DNA of 64,000 nt, from assembly GCF_006345805.1 (NCBI RefSeq), contig NC_043010.1:20708001-20772000 (forward strand). Reading direction: 5' to 3'. The DNA comes from Octopus sinensis. Taxonomy: Eukaryota. This document shows, piece by piece, positions 6,388 through 60,004 of this stretch. The stretch's first letter is position 1. Each line of letters starts with the position of its first letter. Below the pieces are notes generated by a model. It saw nothing but the letters and a program-made list of their open reading frames with translations. It was not told where the DNA came from and did not search any database. The translations under genes and the position numbers were made by a program.

Positions 6388-7547
6388 GGTTCGTCCGGTA
6401 TATCGTAATAAAAGGTTTAAATGAACCCCGTCACTACAAGTTTTTCTTTTTAATTGGAATCTGTGGGGATCGGTTGCAGTGGCAGCAGCCATTGGTCTAA
6501 TTCCCGTTCGAGTGGAGCAAAGTGTTTATCGAGGACATCACATGTGACATCTTCTCCAGTACCCAGCCTTGTTACTTTGGCCTTCAACCCAGAACCTGTT
6601 GTCCGCTGAATAGAAGAGCAGCAAGGATTAAGTACGACCCATTGCTGAACAGATCTCTTTTCATGCTGATCCTTGTTGGGATTTTTAGCGTCTTCTCTCT
6701 CGATTGTTGCTCTCATCCTCCAGACGGACGGTGTGGTCTTTGAGGAAAGATCCTCAATGGCTGCACTTAGCGGGGAGGTGGATGAAACTAATCGTTTAAT
6801 AGAAATGTAGAATTTATTTCAATAAACTCGACTTTTAGCAAACACACACACAATTGATATCTATCAATTAACATCAATATAAACCAGCAAAAGAGACCGA
6901 TAGAATAAGTACTAAGCTTAAGAAATAAGCCCTGGGGTCGATTTGCTCGACTAAAACCCTTCATGGCGGTGCCCCAGCATGGCTGCAAGCAAAATAATGA
7001 ATACAAGTAAAAGAATAAAAGAAAGAATAAAGAGAATATATATATATTTTAAAAAAATCTGAAGATTTAAAAATTATATTACGATTAATAAGTGGAATGA
7101 CCACTAAAGTGGATTCCTATACGCTAGAGATAGTTGACTTCCACTATGATAAGTTCTGTATTTTGAATATATGATAGACTTCACAATAAAAAAATCAGCC
7201 AGAAAAAATGAAAAAAGATTTACATCGCCTTAGCTAGGAAATATATCCACCGAATTAGCTAAAAAACATTATATTCCCTGATTATCCCCCTTGAGCAATA
7301 CTCTCCTGTATAGCTGCAAAATTGTAACATACCTGCTTCTACGCAAGATTAAATCAAAACTTTTATGATTTCATAACACTGAGTCATGATTAACGAAGTG
7401 AAACCAGGCGACTCTGTACATATTCTAATGGATTAAATAATCTTTATCTACGTAAACAAGGTTTCTGTGCTTTTATATATATCTTATACATACATTACAT
7501 ACATACATACATACATACATACACATATATATATATATATATATATA

Positions 7548-7634
7548 ACCCATACAGAATTGACAATGACATGCTTGTGTGTAAATACATGACTATAATT
7601 CATATAAGTACATATATACATAGATGTGTGTATA

Positions 7635-7678
<44 letters not shown>

Positions 7679-7777
7679 ATATATATACACACCACACACA
7701 TCTATGTATATATGTACTTATATGAATTATAGTCATGTATTTACACACAAGCATGTCATTGTCAATTCTGTATGGGT
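7548..7777. repeat. Palindrome with ~83-bp arms around (TA)n
   Basis: 7548-7630 is the reverse complement of 7695-7777. Confidence 0.92.
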
Positions 7778-8429
7778 ATATACCCATTTTCGTACGAGTA
7801 CATTATTCAAGTTAATATTTAGCATATTTTTACAGGTCCATTGATGTCTTGTAATTGTTGTCTGCAAGTTAACCGTATCGGTTCCGATTTTGTGGAACGT
7901 GTTCTTAAGATTTTTTCTGATACATTTCGTCAGATAACCAAATAACTCATTAACCATAGATATAAATCTAAAGTGTTACTCCGGCTGTTGTACCGCATAT
8001 TTCTCATTCAATCTTTGTTGATTTTTAACATTATATAAAAGAAAAAATAACATATTTGAAAGGTAACTGATCTCTATTAGTACGCTTCACTTTCTTTTCT
8101 CACGTCCAAATAATTATTTTGGGTGTGTTGTGCCTTCATTTTTTTAATGTGTTACCTCTCAAAAAATATATTCCTGGTCATCGTTTAGAATATGCACTTC
8201 AACGAACAGATTTCACCACGCTATTTGCCTTGCGTATGCAGACTTGATTCAAGGCTGCACTTAGACATTTGGCGGTTATTAGATGCCATCGATCGAATTA
8301 TGTTGCGCCATTCAAAAGCAAATTCGGTCAGTGTCAAGTTTCTGGTGGCGGTTTGTAGAGTTAAGGTTCTACCATCATCTGCCCGTGTCTCATCTAGCCT
8401 CAAGTGGAGTATCCACAAAATTCGTTAAA

Positions 8430-10612: not shown

Positions 10613-10699
10613 TCTTAATATACATGTTTTTACACATACATCACAAATCTTCCCATCACTTGGGAATATATAAATAAATAAACATATATATAACATACG

Positions 10700-10928
10700 G
10701 TATGATTATAAACGGTAAATTTTAGCCATTTCTCCCCAGAATGAGAAAATGATGAACAACCTTAAACGATTTTCAAACCTTATTAGATTCTCATCAGAGG
10801 CGTCTACATCATTCTAACAGTCTCCAGAGAAACATGAAGCTAAACTGTTTATATACTCAACAAATGCAGCAGTTACTCTGTGAAGGAGTCCCTAATTTGC
10901 GTACCGAAAGTATTTAACACTATAAATA
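10700..10928 (-). mobile_element. Short HHR-bearing element, diverged inverted copy of 15822-16050
   Basis: Reverse complement aligns along its length; HHR CCT-CTGATGA-GAATC(taataa)GGTTT-GAA-AATCGTTT-A-AGG at 10800-10759. Confidence 0.75.
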
Positions 10929-11771
10929 CCAGCGGCCTGTCAACGGGGATCTAAGTCCACACAATATCAAGGTATGATATAATATATGTGTAATATATAG
11001 TACATACACGCACGCACACATACACTCACACACACACATACATACACAAATATATATCGAAATGAATCTCGTCTGGAGCTATACGCGCTGAGCTTTTCCT
11101 GTTTTCATTGAGGTCATTGAGAGTGCTAAAGTAAATCTGCCCGGCTTCAGGTTTTATTTGTAAAGTGTTGAAAGACGGCAGTTATGGTACACACTTCTTA
11201 AGTTTTTGTTTCAACCACGACTGCGTGTTTAAACAGTTCCCAACCAGGTGAGTCCGGTTCGAGACCAGTACACGGCATCTGGCCTAGTATTTTTTTTATT
11301 CGAAACGAAGTTAATGTACCAAAAACTGACAATGTACAGAGCTACGCCTTTTATGAAGAAGGAAGTGTATAGTTTCTTAAACTGACGCATAAATTCTCAA
11401 CATATGACTTGTACTTATTCAATTCCGGAACAAACTGAAACCCGGGAATTGAATGTCAGAAAACTTGACTAAATCGCACAAACTGTTTTGCGGATATGCC
11501 CTGATTTCTGAAACTGTAATAAATATTTCTGTGTAGACGAGTCAGCAAAGAATCTCTTTGTGGTTACTCGATTTGCTTGAACAGCAGCAGAGACAAACTT
11601 TCCTTCAAATTACACCGCACTCACTCAAAAATATAAAAACATAACAAAAGACACAGGTGACACAGGAAGGGCACCTTGAGTAGGTGTCTTCTATTATAGC
11701 TCCGGGCCGACTAAAGCCTTGTGAGTGGCTCTGATAAACGGAAAATGGAAACTGAAAGAAATCTGTCGTAT

Positions 11772-12087: not shown

Positions 12088-12394
12088 ACACTGTTTTGTC
12101 ATATATTATTATGTTTGACCTTAAAGTTTCTTATGTGGTGGTTTAATAAAGTATGTGATTGGGTATTATCTGGTAGTTGATATTTGATTTCGATGTATTT
12201 CTCCATTTTCTTATTTTGTATTATGAATTTGTGGTAAAACACTTTACCTTTGCCCATATAATACAGTAAATGAATTAATTGCATCACAATTCTTAACATT
12301 TATGTATTAACTTTGTTGGGTACTTCACTGGCAGTATATTGGATATATGTTATCCCATGGAGGGTTGCATTTAGAACCCCTATCTCCTTTGCAA

Positions 12395-12441
<47 letters not shown>

Positions 12442-12504
12442 GCAAATTGAGATAGGGGTTCTAAATGCAACCCTCCATGGGATAACATATATCCAATATA
12501 TATA

Positions 12505-12575
<71 letters not shown>

Positions 12576-12882
12576 GTTGCAAATTGAGATAGGGGTTCTA
12601 AATGCAACCCTCCATGGGAACATATATCCAATATACTGCCAGTGAAGTACCCAACAAAGTTTAATACATAAATGTTAAGAATTGTGATGCAATTAATTCA
12701 TTTACTGTATATATGGGCAAGGGTAAAGGGTTTTACCACAAATTCATAATACAAAATAAGAAAATGGAGAAATACATCGAAATCAAATATCAACTACCAG
12801 ATAATACCCAATCACATACTTTATTAAACCACCACATAAGAAACTTTAAGGTCAAACATAATAATATATGACAAAACAGTGT
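12088..12882. repeat. Large palindrome with ~310-bp arms, centred on (TA)n + 63-bp partial arm + (TA)n
   Basis: 12088-12400 is the near-perfect reverse complement of 12571-12882; extra partial copy at 12438-12500. Confidence 0.95.
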
Positions 12883-13634: not shown

Positions 13635-13956
13635 CGTCCGTCCTTGTTTTGACATCGTGATAATTTCAAACGAGTGTAATACATACGTGTCATTCATTTC
13701 CAGTTTGCCGTGGAAGACATGTCTAGCTTTGCGGAAATCCCTTGCGTGGAAACACGAAACGGTTGGCGACAGGAAGGACCACCAGCCTCTGTGTGACTTC
13801 AGTCCAACCCATGCAAGCACTGAAGAATGGTTGTTAAAATGAAGACGATAATGATGATGATGAAGAGGAGGACGCTTATGCGAGATATATTACAGTATGG
13901 GATATCAAGGGCTGTATGTACGAGAGCAAATTGTTCAAAGTTTTGTTGAATTCATA

Positions 13957-15157
13957 TCAGGTTGAGTAAAAAGTAAGCAATGTTTTGAATCATGAAGAAT
14001 TTCTACCGGATTTTTGCAGGGTTTTAATTATTAACATTGATATTTTTCGCCGTTGTTACAATCATCTGAAATGTAAGTGTCAAAGCGCGATATTCGAGCA
14101 CTTTTCAATTTCAAAAAAAAGACGTAAAGCAGCTGAAACTGTTTATGATATAAACGAAACGTTTGGTGAAGAAATGAGCAGTGAATAGTCAGCTCGAAAA
14201 TGATTTAAACGATTTCACAGTGGAGTCCTAAGCCTCTGAAGATCATGAGGGTAGTGGATGCCAATCTGTCATCGATGACGGTCAATTAAAGATCGTCATT
14301 GAGAAAGGTCCACGTAAAACCATTCGAGAACTGGCAAAAGAATTTGAAGTTAGCCAGAAAACTGTCTGTAACTATTTGCATGCGATCGGAAAATAAAAAA
14401 AAAAGCTCAACAAATGGGTACCACACGATTTGAATGAAAATCAGAAAATACGCAGATATGAAATTTGCTGGTCACTTCTCTGCAACCGGACCGATCCGTT
14501 TCTCAACCATATTGTAACTTGCGATGAAAAGTGAATTCTGTACAATAATAAAAAACGTTCTTCGTAGTGGTTGGACCAAAATGAAGCACTGAAACCTTCC
14601 CTAAACTCAAGCTCTTCAAAAGGAAGGTTATGGTGACTGTTTGGTGGTGTACTGCTGGACTCATCCACTATAACTTCTTAAAACCCGGAAAAAAAACCCA
14701 TTACTGCAGAAACATATTGTCATGAAATTGCCAAAACGAAAAACTGCTACTCCGTCCCAGACTGGTCAACAGAAGCAGGCTGGTCATTCTTCATGACAAT
14801 GCTCAACCACATGTTTCACTAATGACACACCAGAAGTTGAGGGAACTTGGCTACAAAGTTCTTCCCCACTCAGCTTATTCCCCCAGACATTTCTCTTATC
14901 GACTACCACTTTTTCAATCATCCTGATGGTTTCCTGCGGAGAAGTTAAAAAATCAAACCGATGTTGAAAGTGCGTTCAAAGAGTTCCTCAGTTCCAGAAC
15001 TCCAGATTTTTACGTAACTCGTTGGCAAAATGTGTTGATTGTAATGGTAATTACTTTGTAATGGAAATTACTTTGATGAATAAAATTTCCGCATTGTTGA
15101 AATATATTGTGATGAATTTTATGTTTCAAAACGTTGCTTACCTTTTACTCAGCCTGA
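13957..15157 (+). mobile_element. Decayed full-length mariner (DD34D) transposon
   Basis: TA-flanked TIRs TCAGGTTGAGTAAAAAGTAAGCAATGTTTTGAA / TTCAAAACGTTGCTTACCTTTTACTCAGCCTGA; motifs WVPHDL, IVTCDEK, HDNAQPH, YSPDI..DYHFF with stops and frameshifts. Confidence 0.92.
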
Positions 15158-15487
15158 TAGATTGGAAAATCAGTTTACCAGAACTTAAAAGTATCATAAG
15201 GTGTGAGAGTCAAGCATGTAATAATCCTTCAAATAGCCGACTATTTCTATGTCGGCCACGTGACTGATTAATATTCGTTTGTTAAAAGTTGAATTAGCTT
15301 TAGTCATTCGAGCCCTACTGAGACACAATCTTCCAGGATTTAATCAATGTTGTCGATCGCAGTACCCTTTTCCTTCACCATGGTTTTATTTTATCGATTA
15401 TAATTATCGAACCGCTAAGTTACCGTTTTCGTATATAGATACAAAATTAGACATACATGCAGATACGAACACATAATTCCATATACA

Positions 15488-15806: not shown

Positions 15807-15821
15807 GTGTATATATGTATT

Positions 15822-16050
15822 TATAGAGTGTTAAACACTTTCGGTATGCAAATTAGGGACTCGTTCATAGAGTAACTGCTACATTTGTTGAGTATATAAA
15901 CAGTTTGGCTGCTTATTTCTTTGGAGATTATCAAAGTGATGTGGACACCTCTGATGAGAACCCAATAAGGTTCGAAAATCGATTAAGGTTGGTCATCATA
16001 TTTTTCAATCTGCGGAGAAATGCTTAAAATTTGCCCTGTTTATAATTATA
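15822..16050 (+). mobile_element. Short non-coding element with an intact hammerhead motif, between microsatellites
   Basis: Second copy at 10700-10928 (-); contains the HHR below. Confidence 0.75.
15947..15989 (+). ncRNA. Type I hammerhead ribozyme with canonical core
   Basis: ACCT-CTGATGA-GAACC(caataa)GGTTC-GAA-AATCGATT-A-AGGT: stems I and II pair fully, stem III is a palindrome, predicted cleavage after UUA (15985). Confidence 0.85.
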
Positions 16051-16183
16051 ACACATGTTACACACACACACATATATATGTGTGTGTGTGTGTATATGTA
16101 TATATATATATATATATATATAGAATGCTCAAATGAAAGAAAATTTTAATAAAATGAGAAAATTAAAATATATAAAATATATT

Positions 16184-16224
16184 TATTCAACCGGTTTTCG
16201 TCATTGTATGACTTGTCAAGAATA
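16184..16224 (-). ncRNA. Hammerhead motif (U3-A8 variant) in the inverted pLTR
   Basis: Reverse complement of 24463-24503. Confidence 0.7.
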
Positions 16225-16802
16225 TTTATGTTTTAAGAAGTTATTTTAAAAATTAGAAAAGGGGAAAAAAAGAAAATTGCATTGTTTTTTGTAAAAGAAT
16301 AATGATATAAAAATGTACAAAAAATTAAAAAATAAGTTCTCCGATACATTGTGAGTTCGTTGTGTATCTTGAGTTTTATGGTTTGTTTACCAAAAAATTA
16401 CCTTGAGGTGTTAAGATCCAAAGGGATTAAGAGCATGTGATGTTGTTGTGTTGTTAAATTCAGCATGTTGCAGGACAGGAAGTAGTAGTAATTGTGGTCC
16501 TGGTTCTTCAGTTCCTGTGTTGTGGGTAAGGGGAGACAAGTCTTTTGAGTTCTTCAATAAAACCCAAATTATAAACTATCATTTTAGCTTCATTTGCATT
16601 ATCTTTTTATATAATTGCTTGTTAACTTAACTTTCAGATTTTAACACTTTATTTATATATTTCTAATAATATAAATCTGCATAGACAATTGCATTTCAAA
16701 TTGTCATATCATTTATAATAAAAATGATAGTAATAACAACAATAGTAAAAATGATATTTAAAGAATATAAGTTTTAGCTTGAAGTGATGAATGCATGGTA
16801 TC

Positions 16803-17036
16803 GGAGAGCTGGCAGAAGCGTTAGCACGCGGGGGAAAGCGCGTAGCCGTATTTCGTCTGCCGTTACGTTCTGAGTTCAAATTCCGCCGAGGTCGACTTTG
16901 CCTTCATCCTTTCGGGTCGATAATTTTGTTAAATTAAGTACCAGTTACGCACTGGGGTCGATAAATCGACTCAATCCGTTTGTCTGTCCTTGTTTGTCCC
17001 CTCTGTGTTTAGCCCCTTGTGGGTAGTAAAGAAATA
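16803..17036 (+). mobile_element. Young SINE (Meta-like core) inserted in the inverted PLE copy
   Basis: TSD GGTATC at 16797-16802 and 17037-17042; the other two pLTR copies show the empty site. Confidence 0.92.
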
Positions 17037-19192
17037 GGTATCTTTATATATTTGTGTTAGTCCATCCATGAAGAGTGAGGTAGAGAAAGGAAGTTTGATC
17101 ACGAGGAGTTTGCATATTAAGTTGTGTTGGAATTTTTCAATAAAGAGATTCTCCTTGTTAATTCTCTCCTGTGTGGTGATCCAGTCTTTACACATTGGTA
17201 GAAGGGGAATATATAGAATTTGGGGTTTAAGTCTTTAGCACATGAGTCTAAGTGTTCACTCAGTGGAATTTGTCGGTATTCCGGGAGATTTATTTGTTCT
17301 TTATGCACCGTTACTCGTTTACGTAACGGGGGAGACTCGTTTGTCCAACATAATTATGTGGCAACCAGCGCATGTGAGAACGTAGATAAGGTTCTCGGAG
17401 GAACAGGAGAAGTTAGTCTTGATTTTAAACTTCGTACCTTGTTTGAAGGCAAATTCAGAGCCTTCAAGTAGAAAGGGGCAGGTACCACAGTTTGAGCGTG
17501 CACATTTTTTTACTGTTGGGGGTGGATGTGGTGTGTGAAGTTTGGCATTTGTCAAGTTTTTTTTAAAGATTTGTGTTGCCTTTTGCATTTGAGGATTTTG
17601 TGTGTATTTATAATGTTTTTCATTTTTGGGTCTGTTGACAGTAGACTGAGGTTTTGTATGATTGTGGTGTATGCTTCGATATTTTTGGGGTTGTGGGTGG
17701 AAATGTATGGAAGTATTTTGAGGTTGTGTGTGGTGTTAGGTTGGGTGGTTTTCAGTGTAGTGTTGTCTAGTTCTTTGGCGCGTTTTATTCCATACTCTAT
17801 AAGGGTGGAGGGATATATTGACGTTGTAATAGTGTTTTTTTTGAGGTCTTGAAGGCGTATTTCTCATGTTTTGGGATCCGAGACAATGGTGCATACCCTT
17901 TTAGCTAAATTGAAAGGGATATTTGTCTTGGTGTGTTTTGGGTGGCATGAACTAAAGAGGAGGTATTGTTGTGAGTCTGTAGGTTTGTGGTAGATGTCTG
18001 TTATGATTTGGTTCTTAGGTGTTTTTATAATTAGGAGATCAAGGAATGGGAGATGATGTTTGCTTAATTCCATAGTGAATTGGATGTTGGGATGTATGTT
18101 GTTTAGTAAGGTTTTGAATTCCAGGAGTTTTTCATAAGGTTTCTTTCCATATGATGAAACAATCATCTAAATACCTTTTCCAGTTTTCCATTAGGTAGGT
18201 GTGGAAAACATGTCCAAATTTCTGGCTTGATATTTCATAGAGTGACAGTTCGAAGTTTACCCATTATGAGGTTCGCAAGGACTGGTGCAGCCTTGGTACC
18301 CATCGCAATGCCACATTTTTGACGGTAGTGTGTGTCGTCGAAGAGAAAAAAATTGTTTGTCAGAATGAACTTAAGAGATTCTGTAATAAAAGACTTGTTA
18401 ATGCGGTCAGGGAATGTCTCTGGGTGTTTTTCTAGCCAGAAGTCAATTGCCTCTATACCATACTCGTGTGGAATGTTGGTGTAGAGGTTGATGACATCAA
18501 AGGATACCAGGAGTGCCTCCTCGTTACTGTTTTCGGGAGGTGTTTGAGCATGTCCAGATCATCCCTAATGAAACTTTTGATGTGGGTAAGGAAAGGTTTC
18601 AAAAGGATATCTAGGAAGTTACTCAGGCGGTGTGTTTCACAGGAGGTACCAGCCACGATGGGCCTTAGTTTTAGGTCCTCCGGTGCTTTGATGTTGATGT
18701 GGATGTCAGTGGAGAGTTTGCAGGCTTCGGTGATGTATTTGTTTTTATGGATTTAGGAGGCCATAAAAAGGCTGGGCTTGCATTTGAAAATGGTGATATA
18801 ATCCCTTTCTTTTTCTCTGTGAGTCCTGACCGTGTTGGCGTATGAGTGTGGTGAGGTTTCTGATTGTTTTTTGCTGTTTGTAGTTGTTAATAACCTCATA
18901 GAAAATGTTATTGTTAAGCATGGAGAACACTAGGTGTTTATAAAATTCCGTGTCCATAAGGACCACAGCACTCCCTTTGTCCGCTTCTTTGATGGTGAGG
19001 TTTTTATCCAGTTGTATGTCACGTAGGTTTTCCCATTCTCCCTTACTGAAATTGGATTTTACCTTGGTTTTGCTTGGGGTAAAGGGGAGACTCTGGATGT
19101 GTTTACAGAAATCGTCCAGTGTTTTATTTCTCCCTTTTGGTGGTAGGAAGTTGCTTTTATTTCTGATCAATGAATCGTCCCCATTGTTGATA

Positions 19193-20039
19193 TCCAAACA
19201 CAACTTAATATGCAAACTCCTCGTTGATCAAACTTCCTTTCTCTACCTCACTCTTCATGGATGGACTAACACAAATATATAAAGATACCATGCATTCATC
19301 ACTTCAAGCTAAAACTTATATTCTTTAAATATCATTTTTACTATTGTTGTTATTACTATCATTTTTATTATAAATGATATGACAATTTGAAATGCAATTG
19401 TCTATGCAGATTTATATATTATTAGAAAATCTATAAATAAAGTGGTTAAAATCTGAAAGTTAAGTTAACAAGCAATTATATAAAAAAGATAATGCAAATG
19501 AAGCTAAAATGATAGTTTTATAATTTGGGTTTTATTGAAGAACTCAAAAGACTTGTCTCCCCTACCCACAACACAGGAACTGAAGAACCAGGACCACAAT
19601 TACTACTACTTCCTGTCCTGCAACATGCTGAATTTAACAACACAACACATCACATGCTCTTAATCCCTTTGGATCTTAACACCTCAAGGTAATTTTTTGG
19701 TAAACAACCATAAAACTCAAGATACACAACGAACTCACAATGTATCGGAGAACTTATTTTTTAATTTTTGTACATTTTTATCATTATTCTTTTACAAAAA
19801 ACAAGCAATTTTCTTTTTTTCCCCTTTCTAATTTTTAAAATAACTTCTTAAAACATAAATATTCTTGACAAGTCATACAATGACGAAAACCGTTGAATAA
19901 ATATATATTTATATATTTTATCATTTTCTCATTTTATTAAAATTTTCTTTCATTTGAGCATTCTGCATTTTTAAAAAAATTTTTCCTTACTTATCATTTC
20001 TCCACGTGCGGTCAACACAACCCCACCATTTATTGATCT
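19193..20039 (+). repeat. 5' pseudo-LTR (partial tandem copy of the element's 3' end)
   Basis: Near-identical to 23798-24642; contains the HHR motif at 19860-19899 (one G missing). Confidence 0.93.
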
Positions 20040-20067
20040 GTACCCTCTACCACACGTGTGATTCAGA

Positions 20068-23000
20068 ATGCCTCCGAAAAACAAGAGCACTCTTACAGAG
20101 ACAGTCACCAATAAGACCATTCTAAAAGAACTCAAAGTACTCAATACACATCTACTTACATTCTCCAAAAAAATTGACGAACTCCTCCTTCAATCCCGGG
20201 ACAACTCAGAAAACAACCATCATCAACAACTTTCGGATAAAAATGATGTAAACCTAAACGAAATCAACACTACACTGAAAACTCTACTTTTTCGGATAAG
20301 ATAGATGTAAACCTAAATGAAATCAACACTACACTGAAAACTCTACTTACCAATTCAACGCCAAAGAGACCTCAGACAACCACTCAACACACAGAAGGAA
20401 CACATTTCAACCCCAGCACAACGCATTAAAAACCAGATCATCACTACTTGGACTAAGAAACTACACAACAGAAAACTTCTCTTCTGGAACATGCTCAAAA
20501 ACCAAAACAAAGCTGAAATTTACGACAAATGGTTAAACTCCTCCCCTATCATACTACCCCGAAAATTCCAAATCAAACACATCCCAGACGAACCTGAAAA
20601 ACAACGCTCCCTAAGAGAAAAACTAACATTGGAAAAAATGAAACCGAAGTAGAACTTCTAAAACTCAGAGCACAAAACCACGAACAAAATACACAAAAAT
20701 AGACGATGAGATACTTCTAGAACTAACCTCACACACCAACGAACAGCCCCTCGAACTTGTTATTAAACTATGGAAAGATGAATGTGAAAAGGAAGAACGA
20801 ACCTCCCTCAAACGCTGGGAAAACAACAAAGATTTCTTCCTCAACTATGAAACACAATTCATATTAAACCATAAATCCAAAACCCATTCATAAAAGTACC
20901 CACAACACAGACTTCCACTGTACCCCATAAACACCATTCCAAACCGCACCTCAAATACACATACTCTCCAAACCCCCTCCTAACAGGACACAACCTCCCC
21001 CAACCATATAAAAAACCTTTTCCCCCCCGAAACATCTCAAACAAGACCCACCACAAAACCTGGTTTTCCAATCACTCTAACACCCCTCCCCCACCGATTA
21101 GAACCTTCAAGAACCTCCCATACACTAGAAATTATCGCCCCCTCAAGGCTCCCCTCCCTCACACTAATAACAAACAAGGCATCCTACCCACACCGATACA
21201 TATAAGACCCACCCAACGAACCCCCTATAGTCCACCCATCCAATAACCACATTCCTACCACATCTCCTACAGATCTCCAAACCCTCACATCCCACACGAA
21301 CCCAATCACCACAACTACATACCCCCCTACATCCCCCATACAATCTACCAGTCCACCACCCACAAACCCATCGCATTTCTCACAAATCCTTACACCATCG
21401 CATCCCATACCAACACAAATACGACAACTACCTACCCCCCTCCAACCTCCCCACCCAAAACACTCCTACACATACAACCAGAACTTTAACAAAGAATACA
21501 CCCCTTACCTCAACAACCATTTTTTAGACAGAGGGGAAATACAAACACCACCGCTAACACAGACCCAAAATAAGAAAACAAAAATTATAAACCTCTCCAG
21601 CAAAACACTGACACCAACCCAAATCAACATCCTAGCAAGAGGTTTGAAATTCACACCCACCCCAAGAACACCCACCCCCCGGAGGTCAAGGATGACGTTT
21701 CTGAATTCTGCAGAAACTTCGCCTAACAGAAGCTTTGACAGATATCAACAATGGGGACGATTCATTGATCAGAAATAAAAGCAACTTCCTACCACCAAAA
21801 GGGAGAAATAAAACACTGGACGTTTTCTGTAAACACATCCAGAGTCTCCCCTTTACCCCAAGCAAAACCAAGGTAAAATCCAATTTCAGTAAGGAAGAAT
21901 GGGAAAACCTACGTGACATACAACTGGATAAAAACCTCACCATCAAAGAAGCGGACAAAGGGAGTGCTGTGGTCCTTATGGACACGGAATTTTATAAACA
22001 CCTAGTGTTCTCCATGCTTAACAATAACATTTTCTATGAGGTTATTAACTACAAACAGCAAAAAACAATCAGAAACCTCACCACACTCATACGCCAACAC
22101 GGTCAGGGACTCACAGAAAAAGAAAGGGATTATATCACCATTTTCAAATGCAAGCCCAGCCTTTTTTATGGCCTTCCTAAAATCCATAAAAACAAATACA
22201 TCACCGAAGCCTGCAAACTCTCCACTGACATCCACACATCAACATCAAAGCACCGGAGGACCTAAAACTAAGGCCCATCGTGGCTGGTACCTCCTGTGAA
22301 ACACACCGCCTGAGTAACTTCCTAGACATCCTTTTGAAACCTTTCCTTACCCACATCAAAAGTTTCATTAGGGATGATCTGGACATGCTCAAACACCTCC
22401 CGAAAACAGTTAACGAGGAGGCACTCCTGGTATCCTTTGATGTCATCAACCTCTACACCAACATTCACACGAGTATGGTATAGAGGCAATTGACTTCTGG
22501 CTAGAAAAACACCCAGAGACATTCCCTGACCGCATTAACAAGTCTTTTATTACAGAATCTCTTAAGTTCATTCTGACAAACAATTTTTTTCTCTTCGACG
22601 ACACACACTACCGTCAAAAATGTGGCATTGCGATGGGTACCAAGGCTGCACCAGTCCTTGCGAACCTCATAATGGGTTACTTCGAACTGTCACTCTATGA
22701 AATATCAAGCCAGAAATTTGGACATGTTTTCCACACCTACCTAATGGAAAACTGGAAAAGGTATTTAGATGATTGTTTCATCATATGGAAAGAACCTTAT
22801 GAAAAACTCCTGGAATTCAAAACCATACTAAACAACATACATCCCAACATCCAATTCACTATGGAATTAAGCAAACATCATCTCCCATTCCTTGATCTCC
22901 TAATTATAAAAACACCTAAGAACCAAATCATAACAGACATCTACCACAAACCTACAGACTCACAACAATACCTCCTCTTTAGTTCATGCCACCCAAAACA

Positions 23001-23832
23001 CACCAAGACAAATATCCCTTTCAATTTAGCTAAAAGGGTATGCACCATTGTCTCGGATCCCAAAACACGAGAAATACGCCTTCAAGACCTCAAAAAAACA
23101 CTATTACAACGTCAATATCCCTCCACCCTTATAGAGTATGGAATAAAACGCGCCAAAGAACTAGACAACACTACACTGAAAACCACCCAACCTAACACCA
23201 CACACAACCTCAAAATACTTCCATACATTTCCACCCACAACCCCCAAAAATATCGAAGCATACACCACAATCATACAAAACCTCAGTCTACTGTCAACAG
23301 ACCCCAAAATGAAAAACATTATAAATACACACAAAATCCTCAAATGCAAAAGGCAACACAAATCTTTAAAAAAACTCTTGACAAATGCCAAACTTCACAC
23401 ACCACATCCACCCCCAACAGTAAAAAAATGTGCACGCTCAAACTGTGGTACCTGCCCCTTTCTACTTGAAGGCTCTGAATTTACCTTCAAACAAGGTACG
23501 AAGTTTAAAATCAAGACTAACTTCTCCTGTTCCTCCGAGAACCTTATCTACGTTCTCACATGCGCTGGTTGCCAACATAATTATGTTGGACAAACGAGTC
23601 TCCCGTTACGTAAACGAGTAACGGTGCATAAAGAACAAATAAATCTCCGGAATACCGACAAATTCCACTGAGTGACCACTTAGACTCATGTGCTAAAGAC
23701 TTAAACCCCAAATTCTATATATTCCCCTTCTACCAATGTAAAGACGGGATCACCACACAGGAGAGAATTAACAAGGAGAATCTCTTTATTGAAAAATTCC
23801 AAACACAACTTAATATGCAAACTCCTCGTTGA
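20068..23832 (+). pseudogene. PLE polyprotein: long N-terminal extension + reverse transcriptase + Cys linker + GIY-YIG endonuclease, frameshifted as read
   Basis: IINLSSKTLT..ILARGLKFTPTP; EADKGSAVVLMD; FYGLPKIHK; LVSFDVINLYTNI; GIAMGTKAAPVLANL; RYLDD; LPFLD; IYHKPTD; CARSNCGTC; NLIYVLTCAGCQHNYVGQT. Confidence 0.93.
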
Positions 23833-24642
23833 TCAAACTTCCTTTCTCTACCTCACTCTTCATGGATGGACTAACACAAATATATAAAGATACCATGCAT
23901 TCATCACTTCAAGCTAAAACTTATATTCTTTAAATATCATTTTTACTATTGTTGTTATTACTATCATTTTTATTATAAATGATATGACAATTTGAAATGC
24001 AATTGTCTATGCAGATTTATATTATTAGAAAATAATATAAATAAAGTGTTAAAATCTGAAAGTTAAGTTAACAAGCAATTATAAAAAAAGATAATGCAAA
24101 TGAAGCTAAAATGATAGTTTTATAATTTGGGTTTTATTGAAGAACTCAAAAGACTTGTCTCCCCTTACCCACAACACAGGAACTGAAGAACCAGGACCAC
24201 AATTACTACTACTTCCTGTCCTGCAACATGCTGAATTTAACAACACAACACATCACATGCTCTTAATCCCTTTGGATCTTAACACCTCAAGGTAATTTTT
24301 TGGTAAACAACCATAAAACTCAAGATACACAACGAACTCACAATGTATCGGAGAACTTATTTTTTAATTTTTGTACATTTTTATCATTATTCTTTTACAA
24401 AAAACAATGCAATTTTCTTTTTTCCCCTTTCTAATTTTTAAAATAACTTCTTAAAACATAAATATTCTTGACAAGTCATACAATGACGAAAACCGGTTGA
24501 ATAAATATATATTTATATATTTTATCATTTTCTCATTTTATTAAAATTTTCTTTCATTTGAGCATTCTGCATTTAAAAAAAAATTTTCGTTACTTATCAT
24601 TTCTCCACGTGCGGTCAACACAACCCCACCATTTATTGATCT
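23798..24642 (+). repeat. 3' pseudo-LTR
   Basis: Direct repeat of 19193-20039. Confidence 0.93.
24463..24503 (+). ncRNA. Minimal hammerhead motif, U3-A8 core variant
   Basis: TATTC-TTGACAA-GTCAT(aca)ATGAC-GAAA-ACCGGT-T-GAATA. Confidence 0.7.
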
Positions 24643-35445: not shown

Positions 35446-35474
35446 CATACATATATATATATACATATATATAC

Positions 35475-35505
<31 letters not shown>

Positions 35506-35593
35506 TATGTATGTATATGTATATATATTATATATATATACACACCACCTACCTGTCTTCGTCTTTTGTGTTTTTGTGAATTCTCCGTATATA

Positions 35594-35680
<87 letters not shown>

Positions 35681-35741
35681 CGGAGAATTCACAAAAACAC
35701 AAAAGACGAAGACAGGTAGGTGGTGTGTATATATATATATA

Positions 35742-35774
<33 letters not shown>

Positions 35775-36000
35775 CAAATATACTTATGCATGTATTTGTG
35801 TCAGTGCTTGTTCTCCCCACCATCGCTTGACAACCGATATTGGTGCTTTTACGTTCCAGTAACTTAGCGGTACGGCTTAAGACCCGATAAAGTTAAGTAC
35901 TAAGCTTACAAAGAATAAGTCCTGGGGTCGATTTGTTCGACTAAAAGGCAGTGCTCCAGCATGGCCACAGTCAAATGACTGAAACAAGTAAAAGAGTAAA
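35202..36000 (+). mobile_element. Composite SINE with an expanded internal (TA)n holding a 47-bp-arm palindrome
   Basis: Head 35202-35360, tail 35795-36000; arms 35541-35587 and 35681-35727. Confidence 0.85.
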
Positions 36001-36765
36001 AAAGTAATACTTACATACACAAGCACGCACACATACGCACGTACGCACTCACACACCCCCACACACACACGCACGCACTCAGACGCACGGAGGCACACAC
36101 ACATACACACGCACGCACACACACACGCAGACACGCACGCACACACACTCATACACACTTACACACATGTATATTATTTACTCTACACGGTACAGTACTG
36201 TATACATTAAATGATATTTACCTGTCACATGATGGAGTAACTCCTGTTCGATTTACCTTAGCGGAACAGTAAATTATATATAGTATATATATAGGACATC
36301 CCTTTAAATAGGAATCTACCCCCTAACAAAACCGCACATCCACCCGGATTACCACCGGATCTTCGATCTGTTTTGGATTGTACCTTCACGGATCTCACTG
36401 GCTTTTTATCTCTGACGGATACCACAACTTTAGAACTTTCTGGACTTTCTCAACTTTTAAACTTTGCCATTTTCTCTCCTTTTAAGCTTTCTTTGTCTTT
36501 TTTTCTCCTGTTTGTTTTCCTCTTGTTTTCTGTCCCTTTTTTTCTCTTTTTTCCCGCGTGATCGCTGACTACTACACAGTTTTTCTCTATCCTTTTTTTT
36601 TTCATTCTCTCTCAATATTTCCCCCTCTTAATCCTTTCTGCTGAAGAGCGTAAACTGGAAACGTAAAAGGGTTCCGTTTTTTCCGAGCGTTAAACAAATA
36701 TATATATATATACATATACATATATACAAATATATATATACATATATACATATATATACATATAT

Positions 36766-36782
<17 letters not shown>

Positions 36783-36797
<15 letters not shown>

Positions 36798-36922
36798 TGC
36801 ATATATGGGTTTGCTTCGTATTTCATGTTGTTATATATATATATATATATAAGAATATAGATATATATAACAACATGAAATACGAAAGCAAACCCATATA
36901 TGCATGTGTGTGTGTGTGTGTG
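36783..36922. repeat. Palindrome with ~50-bp arms around a TA-rich spacer
   Basis: GCATATATGGGTTTGCTTCGTATTTCATGTTGTTA vs TAACAACATGAAATACGAAAGCAAACCCATATATGC. Confidence 0.9.
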
Positions 36923-36985
36923 TAAATATAATATATATATATATGTATATATGTATATATATTTATACATATATATATGTATATA

Positions 36986-37017
<32 letters not shown>

Positions 37018-45365: not shown

Positions 45366-45660
45366 GAGGCTGTGTGGTAAGAACCTTGCTTACCAACAAC
45401 ATGGTTCAGGGTTCAGTCCCGCTGCGTGACACCTTGTGCAAGTGTCTTCTGCTATATCCTCGGGCCGATAAAAGCCCTGTGAGTGGATTTGGTAGACGGA
45501 AACTGAAAGAAGCCCGCCGTATATATATATATATATATATATACGACGAGGTTCTTTCAGTTTCCGTCTATCAAATCTACTCACAAGGTTTTGGCCGGCC
45601 CGATGTTATAATAGAAGACACTTGCCCAAGGTGCCAAGCAGTGGGACTGAACTCGAAACC

Positions 45661-45663
<3 letters not shown>
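45366..45663. mobile_element. Two SINE heads tail-to-tail sharing one (TA)n
   Basis: 45366-45520 (+) and 45542-45663 (-), diverged from each other. Confidence 0.85.
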
Positions 45664-45752
<89 letters not shown>

Positions 45753-52094: not shown

Positions 52095-52637
52095 CATAAG
52101 TTACATTTAATCGTCTGGTGGGATTGCATAAGTTACATTTGATCGTCTGGTGGGGTCGCATAAGTTACATTTGATCGTCTGGTGGGATCGCACAAGTTAC
52201 ATTTGATCGTCTGGTAGGATCGCATAAGTTACATTTGATCGTCTGGTGGGGTCGCATAAGTTACATTTGATCGTCTGGTGGGATCGCATAAGTTACATTT
52301 AATCGTCTGGTGGAATCGCATAAGTTACATTTGATCGTCTGGTGGGGTCGCATAAGTTACATTTGATCGTCTGGTGGGATCGCATAAGTTACATTTGATC
52401 GTCTGGTAGGATCGCATAAGTTACATTTAATCGTCTGGTGGAATCGCATAAGTTACATTTGATCGTCTGGTGGGATCGCATAAATTACATTTGATCGTCT
52501 GGTGGGATTGTATAAGTTACATTTGATCGTCTGGTAGGATCGCATAAGTTACATTTGATCGTCTGGTGGGATTGCATAAGTTACATTTGATCGTCTGGTG
52601 GGATTGTATAAGTTACATTTGATCGTCTGGTGGGATC
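52095..52637. repeat. Minisatellite, 17 x 32 bp (CATAAGTTACATTTGATCGTCTGGTGGGATCG)
   Basis: Contiguous units, 543 bp, variation limited to a few positions. Confidence 0.97.
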
Positions 52638-55711: not shown

Positions 55712-56016
55712 GTATATATGTATATATATATTTGCCTAATTTCTTTTATTTCATCGGTTATCGATTAACCAACCATAACTGAGGCGAAGCCATTCAAAGC
55801 AATTGATGACCAATTAGATTACGTAACTGAACAAAAGTAACCCCTGCCCACTTCTCGCAAGATTTCACCTACTGCATAAAGAAAAAAAGTAACGGAGAAA
55901 TAAACATATCACGTTTATATGAGAATATATATAAGTTTGTGTAATATTGTTATAATTATATTATATAATTACAATGATACAAGCTACTGCACTTACCCTC
56001 CCTTCTAAAACATATA

Positions 56017-57307
56017 CGAGGGGCGTTCAATAAGTAATGCCCCTGACCCACTTCCCATAGCAGTAGAGCAACGAAACTTGGCACAGTTATTAGTCTTTTT
56101 CTACATAGGAACCACCCAGAGTTATGCATTTCTCCCATCGTTTGATGTGGCTCTGGAGACCGTTTTTGTAGAAGAACCTAGTTTGGTCCTCTAACCTCAA
56201 CGTGACTTCAGAAATCAAGGCTGCATCATCTGGGAAACGCTTTCTTTTCAAAAACAACTTCATGACTGGGAAGAGGTGAAAATCAGAGGGTGCAAGGTCA
56301 GGAAAGTAGGGTGATGGGGGAGGAGTTCATAGCCATACGTCTGTGCTTCTGATCTGGCGACAAGCGAGTTGTGGACCGGAGCGTTGTCCTGCAGGAGGAG
56401 GATGCCTTTGCTGATCTTGCTCCGCCTCTTGATTTTGATAACTTCTCTTAATTTACTCAAAAGTGAAGCATAATAGGCTCCTGCAATTGTGGTACCCTTT
56501 GCCAGGAAATCTGTCATCACTACTCCGTCCTGGTCCCAGAAGATTGTGAGCATGACCTTGCCAGGGGAGGGCTGCACCCTTGCCTTCTTTGGAGGGGGTG
56601 AGTCACGGTGTTTCCACTGCATTGACTGGGCTTTGGTCTCTGGATCATCGTGATGGACCCAGGTTTCATCCTGTGTAATCAGTCTTTTGAAAAATTTTGA
56701 CTCATCTTCTTGGCACATCTCCAAATTCACCCTCGAGCACTCGACGCGTTCTTGCTTCTGGAAAGGCGTGAGCAACCTGGGAATCCATCTGGCAGACACC
56801 TTTTGCATATGCAAATGGTCATGAATGATAGTTTCCACAGACCCGGTACTAATCTTGACCTCATGGGCTATTTGGCGAATAATTATGCGTCGATCTTCCA
56901 AAATGGCAGCCTCAACTTGACGGACAGATGCCTCATCAATGGCAGAAGGGGGCGACCAGATCTGGGAACTGTTTCCACAGAGTTCCGACCATGTTTGAAT
57001 TCACGATGCCAGCGTTTTACAAGGTCATATGATGAGGCATCATCACCATAAGTTACTTTCATTTCATCAAAAGTCTCCCGTGGTGTGCGTCCTTTCAAAT
57101 ACAAAAACCGGATCACTGCTCGACACTCAACAGGCTCCATTTCACAATTGACTCAGTTCAAACATCTGTAAATCAGAAACCACAATTAGTTCAGAGCTGT
57201 AATTCGCCTCTTAATCTATAGAGATATAAACGATTACCCATGCAAAATTTCAGCTAGATCAAACAACTGCAAGTGGGTCAGAGGCATTACTTATTGAACG
57301 TCCCTTG
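56017..57307 (-). mobile_element. Full-length mariner (DD34D), transposase broken by two frameshifts
   Basis: TA-flanked TIR CGAGGGGCGTTCAATAAGTAATGCC; WIPRLL, ITQDETWVHH, LLQDNAP, PDLAPSDFHLF. Confidence 0.96.
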
Positions 57308-57367
57308 TATAATACGTATGTATCTACGAGTATGTTTGAGCGGAAAAATATATGTATATATATATAT

Positions 57368-57404
<37 letters not shown>

Positions 57405-57414
57405 GTATGTGTAG

Positions 57415-57950
57415 GCAGTGGCTCTCATGGCTTCTGATCTTAACTGATTGGAAGTGTTATCATGTACATTGTTTTGTCTTGGTATAAAAGATGGGCTACA
57501 GCAAGTATTCTGCTCAATACCACAGATTTGCTTGTCAGTTGTTTGACCTTAACCAGTTGAGCATGTCCCTTAGTGGCTGACGATATGTGCATCTCTGATC
57601 ACGAGCAGAAGTAGTGGGGGAGCATCATACCCATGTGTTGAGAAGGATTCTTTGGGGTTTGAATAATTCACCTCTAGAAACATGGGTGTTTCGTTCAACG
57701 TCCTTAAACAACCCTTATTCAGGGACCTTTTGAGCGGGATGGGTTACTCGATCTGAAGAAAATTCTAACTGGGCTCTACCTGCAAGGTCATGTGCTGTTT
57801 ATCTTGATATGAGATCACCATGTCGCGCACATATGGTTGTGATGCATGTGCCTGGTGTACCCTTATCAGACGTGTAGTCATGATGGGTATACTGGGCTTC
57901 GTATATTTTACCCCAGTGTCACTTTGATGGCATGCTCTGCTCGCTCACTC

Positions 57951-57984
<34 letters not shown>

Positions 57985-58010
57985 TAATAATAATAATAAT
58001 AATAATAATG

Positions 58011-58072
<62 letters not shown>

Positions 58073-58075
58073 AAT
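57415..58075 (+). mobile_element. ~535-bp non-coding segment ending in (AAT)n, probable non-autonomous retroelement
   Basis: GC-richer block between (TA)n and (AAT)n; single copy in this window. Confidence 0.4.
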
Positions 58076-58532
58076 GTGTATGCATATACATTGTGTATGC
58101 ATATACATGCAAATATGTATGTACATGTAAGTGTAGGTATATGTATTTATGTATATTTATTTACTAAAATTACAATTACAACAATATACATACATGTATA
58201 ACATATTATGCTTTACATATATAATATGAAAAGATACCAGTAATTATTAAAATATTTAACATACATGAATAGAAATTTGGAAAATATCTTACAGCTGTTT
58301 TAGCCAAGAGGCAAAAATATCTCATTTCTACAGCTGAGGTATAAGGTCACTTTGATGTTTTGTCCCTTGTTTGAGTTTGGTCCAACTGGTTTCCGGCATG
58401 TATTTTAACCATATAGTACCCATATAAGTCAGTAAATATATTAATGATTCACATAGTTAGAGTTATACATATAATGTTGTATAAATGTTTTTTTATAATA
58501 AATTTGTAATAATTTACCTCTCATACGTATTA

Positions 58533-59822
58533 CGAGGGACGTTCAATAAGTAATGCCTCTGACCCATTTCAGTTGTTTGATCTAGCTGAAATTTTACATG
58601 TGCACTTATTTATATCTCTATAGATTAAGAGGCGAATTACAGCTCTGAACTAATTGTGGTTTCTGATTTACAGGTGTTTGAACTGAGTCAAGTGTGAAAT
58701 GGAGCCTGTTGAGTGTCGAGCAGTGATCTGGTTTTTGTATTTGAAAGGACGCACACCACGGGAGACTTTTGATGAAATGAAAGTAACTTATGGTGATGAT
58801 GCCTCATCATATGACCTTGTAAAACGCTGGCATCGTGAATTCAAACATGGTCGGAACTCTGTGGAAACAGCTCCCAGATCTGATCGCCCCCTTCTGCCAT
58901 TGATGAGGCATCTGTCCGTCAAGTTGAGGCTGCCATTTTGGAAGATCGACGCATAATTATTCGCCAAATAGCCCATGAGGTCAAGATTAGTACCGGGTCT
59001 GTGGAAACTATCATTCATGACCATTTGCATATGCAAAAGGTGTCTGCCAGATGGATTCCCAGGTTGCTCACGCCTTTCCAGAAGCAAGAACGCGTCGAGT
59101 GCTCGAGGGTGAATTTGGAGATGTGCCAAGAAGATCAGTCAAAATTTTTCAAAAGACTGATTACACAGGATGAAACCTGGGTCCATCACGATGATCCAGA
59201 GACCAAAGCCCAGTCAATGCAGTGGAAGCACCGTGACTCACCCCCTCCAAAGAAGGCAAGGGTGCAGCCCTCCCCTGGCAAGGTCATGCTCACAATCTTC
59301 TGGGACCAGGACGGAGTAGTGATGACAGATTTCCTGGCAAAGGGTACCACAATTGCAGGAGCCTATTATGCTTCACTTTTGAGGAAATTAAGAGAAGTTA
59401 TCAAAATCAAGAGGCGGAGCAAGATCAGCAAAGGCATCCTCCTCCTGCAGGACAACGCTCCGGTCCACAACTCGCTTGTCGCCAGATCAGAAGCACAGGC
59501 GTATGGCTATGAACTCCTCCCCCATCACCCTACTTTCCTGACCTTGCACCCTCTGATTTTCACCTCTTCCCAGTCATGAAGTTGTTTTTGAAAGGAAAGC
59601 TTTTCCCAGATGATGCAGCCTTGATTTCTGAAGTCACGTTGAGGTTGGAGGACCAAGCTGGGTTCTTCTACAAAAACGGTCTCCAGAGCCACATCAAACG
59701 ATGGGAGAAATGCATAACTCTGGGTGGTTCCTATGTAGAAAAAGACTAATAACTGTGCCAAGTTTCGTTGCTCTACTGCTATGGGAAGTGGGTCAGGGGC
59801 ATTACTTATTGAACGCCCCTCG
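58533..59822 (+). mobile_element. Full-length mariner, near-identical inverted twin of 56017-57307
   Basis: Same TIRs and the same 85-aa + 213-aa ORF split. Confidence 0.96.
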
Positions 59823-60004
59823 TATATTAAATATTTTCACCGTATGCATGGATGACTGCTAGTCTTCCATAAACAACCTTGCCCGGACTGTGCAATCCCA
59901 TGGTCAGTCATGATCGAAGGGGGTCTCAGCAATGTATATGTATGTATATTATAAGTATGCATATGTGTGTGTATTTATATTTATAACTTAGCCTTATGTA
60001 CTTT

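Follow-up and report, generated by a model that had tools for sequence, protein, structure and literature searches.

The window analysed here, a 64,000-nucleotide stretch of the Octopus sinensis genome, contains two copies of a short repeat that carries a hammerhead ribozyme motif. Copy 1 lies on the forward strand at 15817-16062, is 5'-truncated (unit positions 57-302 of 305) and is 93.5% identical to the family majority; copy 2, on the reverse strand at 10686-10984, is nearly full (unit positions 2-305) and 91.4% identical to it. The identity between the two copies is 85%. Comparison of flanks defined the repeat unit as 305 bp, AT-rich and non-coding, with the end of the unit joining its own start at a period of 305; the ~230-bp unit of the preliminary description was the overlap of the truncated copy with the whole one. 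Behind the fixed 3' end of copy 1 follows a (CA)n/(TA)n tract (16063-16121), and directly behind this tract starts the inverted arm of a decayed, Neptune/Nematis-like Penelope-like element (PLE; 16122-24640, forward strand) with reverse transcriptase (RT), CX4CX2C linker and GIY-YIG regions, the RT and GIY-YIG matches being below Pfam cut-offs. The PLE has a 3-kb inverted 5' arm, arms that are 97–98% identical and a 3' end in (TA)n; a SINE-like insertion occupies 16802-17037 in its inverted arm. No PLE frame was found in the 4.8 kb between the two copies, where microsatellites, SINE-like repeats, a mariner-like remnant and a large palindrome occur.

Several other features of the window were recorded. 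A near-perfect 800-bp palindrome at 12088-12882 is centred on (TA)n, as are palindromes at 2343-2608, 7542-7782, 35463-35799, 36698-37006 and 45399-45664; these may be inverted insertions of other repeat families. An element of ~1.2 kb with 42-bp inverted ends lies at 13955-15159, and we take it to contain a decayed mariner-like transposase region. Two inverted arms of 1.3 kb each, 98% identical, at 56012-59827 are possibly another PLE-type inverted insertion, and a tandem array with a 64-bp period (~8.5 copies, 93% identity) is found at 52095-52637. Hammerhead-like core patterns with a pairable stem II occur on the forward strand at 2774, 36641 and 40186, some of them near palindromic repeats.

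The hammerhead of copy 1 is of type I and spans 15936-15999 on the forward strand, with a predicted cut after 15985. Its CUGAUGA core starts at 15951; stem II, of 5 bp with a 6-nt loop, is followed by GAAA, a palindromic stem III and a UUA site, and stem I consists of four proximal base pairs, an internal loop and a 6-bp distal helix (15936-15941 with 15994-15999). A canonical hammerhead had earlier been placed at 15947-15989: its core, stem II, stem III and UUA site stand, but that interval covered the inner part only, and the extent was corrected because stem I goes on past the internal loop into the distal helix. Both the stem I internal loop and loop II are present in the predicted structure, and presumably they resemble the docking elements of Sm-alpha. 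The hammerhead of copy 2 (10749-10812, reverse strand) has an intact core; the G-C pair closing stem II has become G-U, a further stem II pair has become U-G, and stem III has a U-U mismatch at its third pair. The reverse-strand copy with its kept core had been described correctly but the damage understated, as two stem II wobbles are joined by the U-U in stem III, and from these stem changes the copy 2 hammerhead is probably weakened.

A CUGANGA core, GAAA and NUH arranged around three helices, with the ends in stem I, are found in copy 1 and in the family majority. In the 2.72-Gb genome searched, the exact 38-mer of the copy 1 hammerhead gave 22 matches and a looser hammerhead pattern gave 180, against none for the reversed control in either case; the motif therefore occurs beyond chance. 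The Rfam match on the local stretch was below threshold (HH9, 13.8 bits, E 0.64; gathering threshold 52), and the 150 of 160 Rfam matches listed for the whole window included no hammerhead family. The motif is identified by its anatomy and by its conservation between subfamilies (see below). On these grounds of sequence we regard the hammerhead as genuine and as a canonical motif of type I, with self-cleavage predicted.

Three DNA searches returned 2,097, 2,301 and 2,043 first-look candidates, the best 40 of each being scored. An exact 36-mer near the 3' end of the unit had 43 matches in the genome, which, with a non-CpG divergence of 7.6%, gives a rough floor of 730 copies, and we put the family at roughly 700–2,300 dispersed copies. 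The main sample comprised 104 of the 180 hammerhead-pattern matches, chosen so as not to select on length (subfamily A, 74; an older subfamily, 22; inside a DNA transposon, 8; the tandem duplicate L082 was left out). A second sample comprised 30 of the 43 matches to the 3' pattern, 29 of them distinct. The older subfamily (loci L115-L141; e.g. L102, L154) has a unit of ~307 bp, a majority 88% identical and copies ~80% identical to subfamily A, and partial tandems as in subfamily A; its 1,187 candidates overlapped with those of subfamily A.

We examined the ends of the insertions. The 3' ends of 57 of the 74 subfamily A copies stop at unit positions 294-305, mostly 75–80 nt downstream of the predicted cut site. 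A microsatellite is present within the next 30 nt in 38 of these 57 copies, compared with 376 of 3,420 control windows. The 5' ends of subfamily A copies in the main sample are spread across the unit. Among 55 A copies with an intact 3' end, the longer length classes held 8 copies at 222–259 nt, 6 at 260–297, 10 at 298–335, 0 at 336–373 and 9 beyond (maximum 594). Ten of the 19 A copies that reach one full lap end within ~35 nt of it, although this stop zone is TA-rich and one or two of the ten stops may be alignments extending into (TA)n. The 9 of 55 that extend well beyond one unit include 8 that cross the cut site twice; in two-ribozyme A copies both ribozymes are usually decayed, and in the hammerhead-pattern sample such copies had a doubled chance of being drawn. 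Tandem copies, a check proposed in the preliminary description, are thus present as partial head-to-tail tandems of up to ~2 units. The longest of the 74 A copies measures 1.94 units and one older-subfamily locus ~2.5 units; no long array was found among the best 40 matches, of ~2,000 candidates, to a 1.8-unit query, and the assembly may collapse arrays. Locus L187 has a head-to-head inverted arm. The copies therefore combine a fixed 3' end, 5' truncation, partial tandems or an inverted arm and a microsatellite target, which is the pattern of PLE mobilisation.

In the 3'-pattern sample a start near the cut site was seen at just one of the 29 distinct loci; 6 begin 15–26 nt downstream of this site. 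The absence of a 5'-end pile-up at the cut indicates that the template was mostly not a linear RNA ended there, and this candidate template was mostly ruled out. A weak 5'-end cluster was seen at unit positions 237-260, in a U-rich tract 12–35 nt downstream of the predicted cut (L210, L214, L219, L223, L226, L230 and several others); it could reflect enzyme slippage, or cleaved templates that were later trimmed.

The genomic copies decay neutrally and the ribozyme core is not spared. In the 3'-pattern sample the copies have a non-CpG divergence of 7.6%, with 33% of CpG sites changed; the core was changed at 15 of 276 sites and other sites at 383 of 5,057. Similarly, in 88 similarity-picked segments, not fully de-duplicated, 36 of 725 non-CpG sites were changed in the core and 827 of 12,915 elsewhere. 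All core bases are kept in 6 of the 29 hammerhead rows of the 3'-pattern sample (one row is a duplicate). The closest of the best 30 matches is 3.6% from the family majority, with no young copies among them, and from the neutral decay of its copies the family looks extinct. Between subfamilies, in contrast, the ribozyme is conserved: the older subfamily and subfamily A differ at 3 of 63 ribozyme positions versus 32 of 223 elsewhere (Fisher p 0.049), and the 41 consecutive core bases at unit positions 188-228 are identical in both. Conservation of the motif, a lack of which had been named as the point that would speak against the element, is accordingly found between the subfamily masters but not among genomic copies.

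The predicted circular folds of both majorities are rods with the ribozyme at the tip (z –3.5, with 1 of 100 shuffles as good; z –5.2, with 0 of 100), so that the monomer or circle is highly self-paired, by prediction. The joint fold of the subfamilies scored –63.4, compared with –43.0 ± 5.3 for random placement of their differences (0 of 200), a null that also places changes inside the conserved ribozyme; this excess suggests that the subfamily differences avoid the rod common to both. The common rod holds one two-sided compensatory pair only, and the older subfamily has lost 16 of the 102 subfamily A pairs, mostly ones distant from the ribozyme, the distal part not being conserved. Such a rod also forms in linear RNA and is no proof of a circle. 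Derived changes were common to two units of one locus at 42 of 4,241 sites (0.99%), against 0.50 ± 0.09% between loci (31 pairs, one empty; 0 of 2,000 permutations; most loci similarity-picked). This sharing fits one template per insertion, the circle and the homogeneous tandem not being separated by it, or it could come from gene conversion or fine subfamily structure. Four putative RNA runs, under two organism codes in total, gave 48–161 contigs each, of 80–99% likeness and no start or end signal; assembled contigs are uninformative on RNA ends or circles, and the unit junction occurs in DNA too.

Part of the unit has also been carried by another kind of element. A non-autonomous DNA transposon of 3.8–4.9 kb with terminal inverted repeats (L084:3690-8616; L086; further loci L062, L064, L072, L074, L075, L157, L200, L202 and L254-L265) contains unit positions 185-305 with the hammerhead core intact. 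Five of the 22 exact ribozymes lie in this transposon, which was found at ~20 places in all, and four distant relatives of it lack the ribozyme fragment. Five flank bases could pair and so rebuild the outer stem I helix. Both loci with two visible ends have 8-bp target duplications; an 8-bp duplication is typical of hAT elements, and we call the transposon hAT-like for this reason. No Pfam match of weight to a transposase was found in its 5 short frames.

The unit falls within 150–450 bp, has a GC content below 50% and carries no LTR and no linked frame (104 + 30 loci), as defined for non-LTR retrozymes. We conclude that the family is a new animal non-LTR retrozyme, the class itself having been published already, and that it was probably mobilised by a Penelope-type enzyme. 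Its anatomy, its end pattern, the lack of a linked frame, the two subfamilies and the neutral decay of copies are direct observations. We consider it likely, given these, that the retrozyme owes its genomic copies to a borrowed Penelope-type reverse transcriptase-endonuclease. Under this scheme, a two-hammerhead locus would be transcribed and the transcript would cut itself to a 305-nt monomer; this would fold into a long rod, the ribozyme lying at the tip, and a host ligase may close it into a circle. A Neptune/Nematis-like or Naiad enzyme would nick (TA)n DNA, and reverse transcription would begin internally, 75–80 nt downstream of the cut site. The enzyme would pass through the ribozyme, still intact, and on some occasions cross the unit junction as well, on a circle or an uncut multimer, and would halt at variable points; this activity would have ceased long ago. 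Against the scheme, a partner element was not found, the unit has no sequence in common with the neighbouring PLE, and no long array was seen, whereas published retrozymes often have longer ones. The single compensatory pair and the broken pairs of the rod, and the lack of selection on the core among copies, also count against it. In addition, a circle is not required, as an anole PLE used uncut RNA in vitro (PMC11167929), and 8 of 9 Xenopus retrozyme dimers were reported as uncleaved (bioRxiv 10.64898/2026.07.22.740005).

The same element and enzyme could have used another template, namely a linear read-through RNA, left uncut, from a short tandem master, with ribozyme and circles uninvolved in insertion. 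We regard this as a possible reading that we do not favour. Every long copy passes an intact cut site and few copies exceed 2 units, both of which it would explain, and for the anole PLE insertion is normal with ribozyme mutants, uncut RNA being the main substrate (PMC11167929). However, the core was kept between subfamily masters, which implies that cutting mattered at some step, and the clustering of 10 of 19 one-lap copies within ~35 nt is what a circle predicts. The one-lap stop is equally explained by target microhomology, because the zone is TA-rich. Within the scheme of a retrozyme moved by a PLE enzyme, we lean slightly towards the circle rather than the uncut multimer as template. The signs of a circle would be the fixed internal start, the passage of a re-ligated cut site and the private changes common to units of one locus, with the preferred stop just past one lap representing an enzyme that meets its own starting point. 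The combined proposition, that the fossil copies record Penelope-type reverse transcription round an RNA circle and that a ribozyme fragment later spread as hAT-like cargo, we put forward tentatively and regard as less probable than not.

The preliminary description had offered a non-autonomous ribozyme retroelement or a solo pLTR of another PLE family. The former is supported by dispersed non-coding copies without a linked frame: the suggested search for linkage to an RT ORF found none joined to the unit in the 104 + 30 pattern-picked loci. Less than 2 kb away, PLE fragments were found at 4 of the 104 loci (that of the window included) and at 2 of the 30, never joined to the unit. Frames were sought by tblastn with the PLE protein of the window as single query, which distant PLE clades could escape, yet flanks in common would have shown up, and the flank-versus-flank comparison revealed no shared sequence beyond simple repeats, the cargo transposon and SINE-like pieces. 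The fragments near L043, L048 and L070 were rejected as partners, being separate insertions without this ribozyme, and no sequence in common with an autonomous partner was found for the window PLE or the three flanking PLE fragments compared. Alternatively, the copies might derive from an autonomous PLE as its solo or truncated pLTRs, the coding copies of that PLE being lost, rare or absent from the assembly. Their end pattern is PLE-like, most PLE insertions are 5'-truncated (bioRxiv 10.64898/2026.07.22.740005), and the set examined comprised 104 of 180 and 30 of 43 matches. But the 5' end of the unit runs into its own 3' end and not into an RT or endonuclease frame, no non-unit flank recurs between loci other than those named, and the ribozyme is canonical here, whereas in animal pLTRs it is mostly minimal (PMC4209133, which treats canonical and minimal hammerheads and dimer folding). 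We consider a pLTR origin improbable.

Within the window itself, neither the ~70-bp proximity of copy 1 to the PLE nor the inverted pair 5 kb apart proved meaningful. The dissimilarity of the unit to the large PLE was borne out (best blastn E 1.3), no canonical hammerhead was found in the PLE repeats by regular expressions, and the PLE and the unit have the (TA)n target alone in common. The identity of the PLE arms indicates that the PLE is younger than copy 1, and most likely its insertion, unrelated in sequence, went into the (TA)n tract that follows copy 1. Copies 1 and 2 have 16 and 23 differences from the family majority and no derived change in common, and ~10 pairs less than 5 kb apart are expected by chance for 2,300 copies; the two look like independent insertions. 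That they are arms of one inverted insertion, or parts of one composite element with the adjacent PLE, is very improbable: the copies do lie head to head, and PLE-type insertions form inverted arms (L187; PMC8557442), but the intervening repeats are unrelated, close pairs are also found elsewhere (L005 with L124, 4.5 kb), the lack of common derived changes points the same way (at low power, with ~2 expected from one event), and the younger age of the PLE argues against a composite.

As the class of animal retrozymes is already published, the weight of this family is modest. It contributes counted insertion-end statistics on two questions, the identity of the enzyme that moves animal retrozymes and the circularity of the template, and it offers a clear contrast between a ribozyme that the master lineage retained and copies that decay neutrally. 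Because copy 1 is among the few with an intact core, a direct assay is possible.

A literature search of openly available papers yielded none that deals with this family or with a hAT element carrying a hammerhead; the family may already be catalogued in Repbase, Dfam or supplements. Non-LTR retrozymes were defined from coral, mussel and axolotl, with circles shown and PLEs named as likely movers (PMC7229834); the main text of that paper does not mention octopus or cephalopods. Vertebrate retrozymes were linked to pLTRs, with many monomers and cleavage of 1 of 9 dimers (bioRxiv 10.64898/2026.07.22.740005). As reported for these metazoan retrozymes, the octopus family has a non-coding unit within 150–450 bp that is low in GC and contains a single canonical hammerhead of type I, whose stem III is short and palindromic; its repeats run head to tail and its predicted circle is rod-like. 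It likewise has many monomeric copies and PLEs in the same genome. Unlike them, its copies are mostly shorter than one unit and reach ~2 at most, no long arrays were found, and the family is old and decaying. Circles were shown for published retrozymes, whereas the octopus family is known from genomic DNA copies, for which a fixed 3' end and (TA)n targeting are documented.

Similarly to Schistosoma Sm-alpha and newt satellite 2 (PMC6155905, PMC7229834), the octopus element is non-autonomous, a few hundred bases long and equipped with a type I hammerhead; those two are transcribed and were shown to cleave, whereas the octopus hammerhead is a predicted fold. Non-autonomous Chlamys elements (MRC1; PMC8557442) are also non-coding PLE dependants with head-to-tail insertions, but they resemble their autonomous partners at the 3' end, and no such partner was found for the octopus family. 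EN+ PLEs differ from it in that the octopus family has no reading frame, a canonical rather than minimal ribozyme and no match to the PLEs compared. It nevertheless shares with them (anole Poseidon PAc; Neptune, Nematis, Naiad) variable 5' truncation, partial tandems, an occasional inverted arm and AT-rich or (TA)n targets (PMC11167929, PMC8557442). The latter paper describes the (TA)n bias, partial tandems and inverted arms of such insertions and places Naiads in cephalopods; the former reports internal initiation downstream of the ribozyme, AT-rich targets and an uncut RNA substrate for the anole PLE. In PAc the cut falls at ORF position 26 and initiation at 111-118 (PMC11167929), so that its 3' end is fixed 85–92 nt after the ribozyme cut, compared with 75–80 nt in the octopus family.
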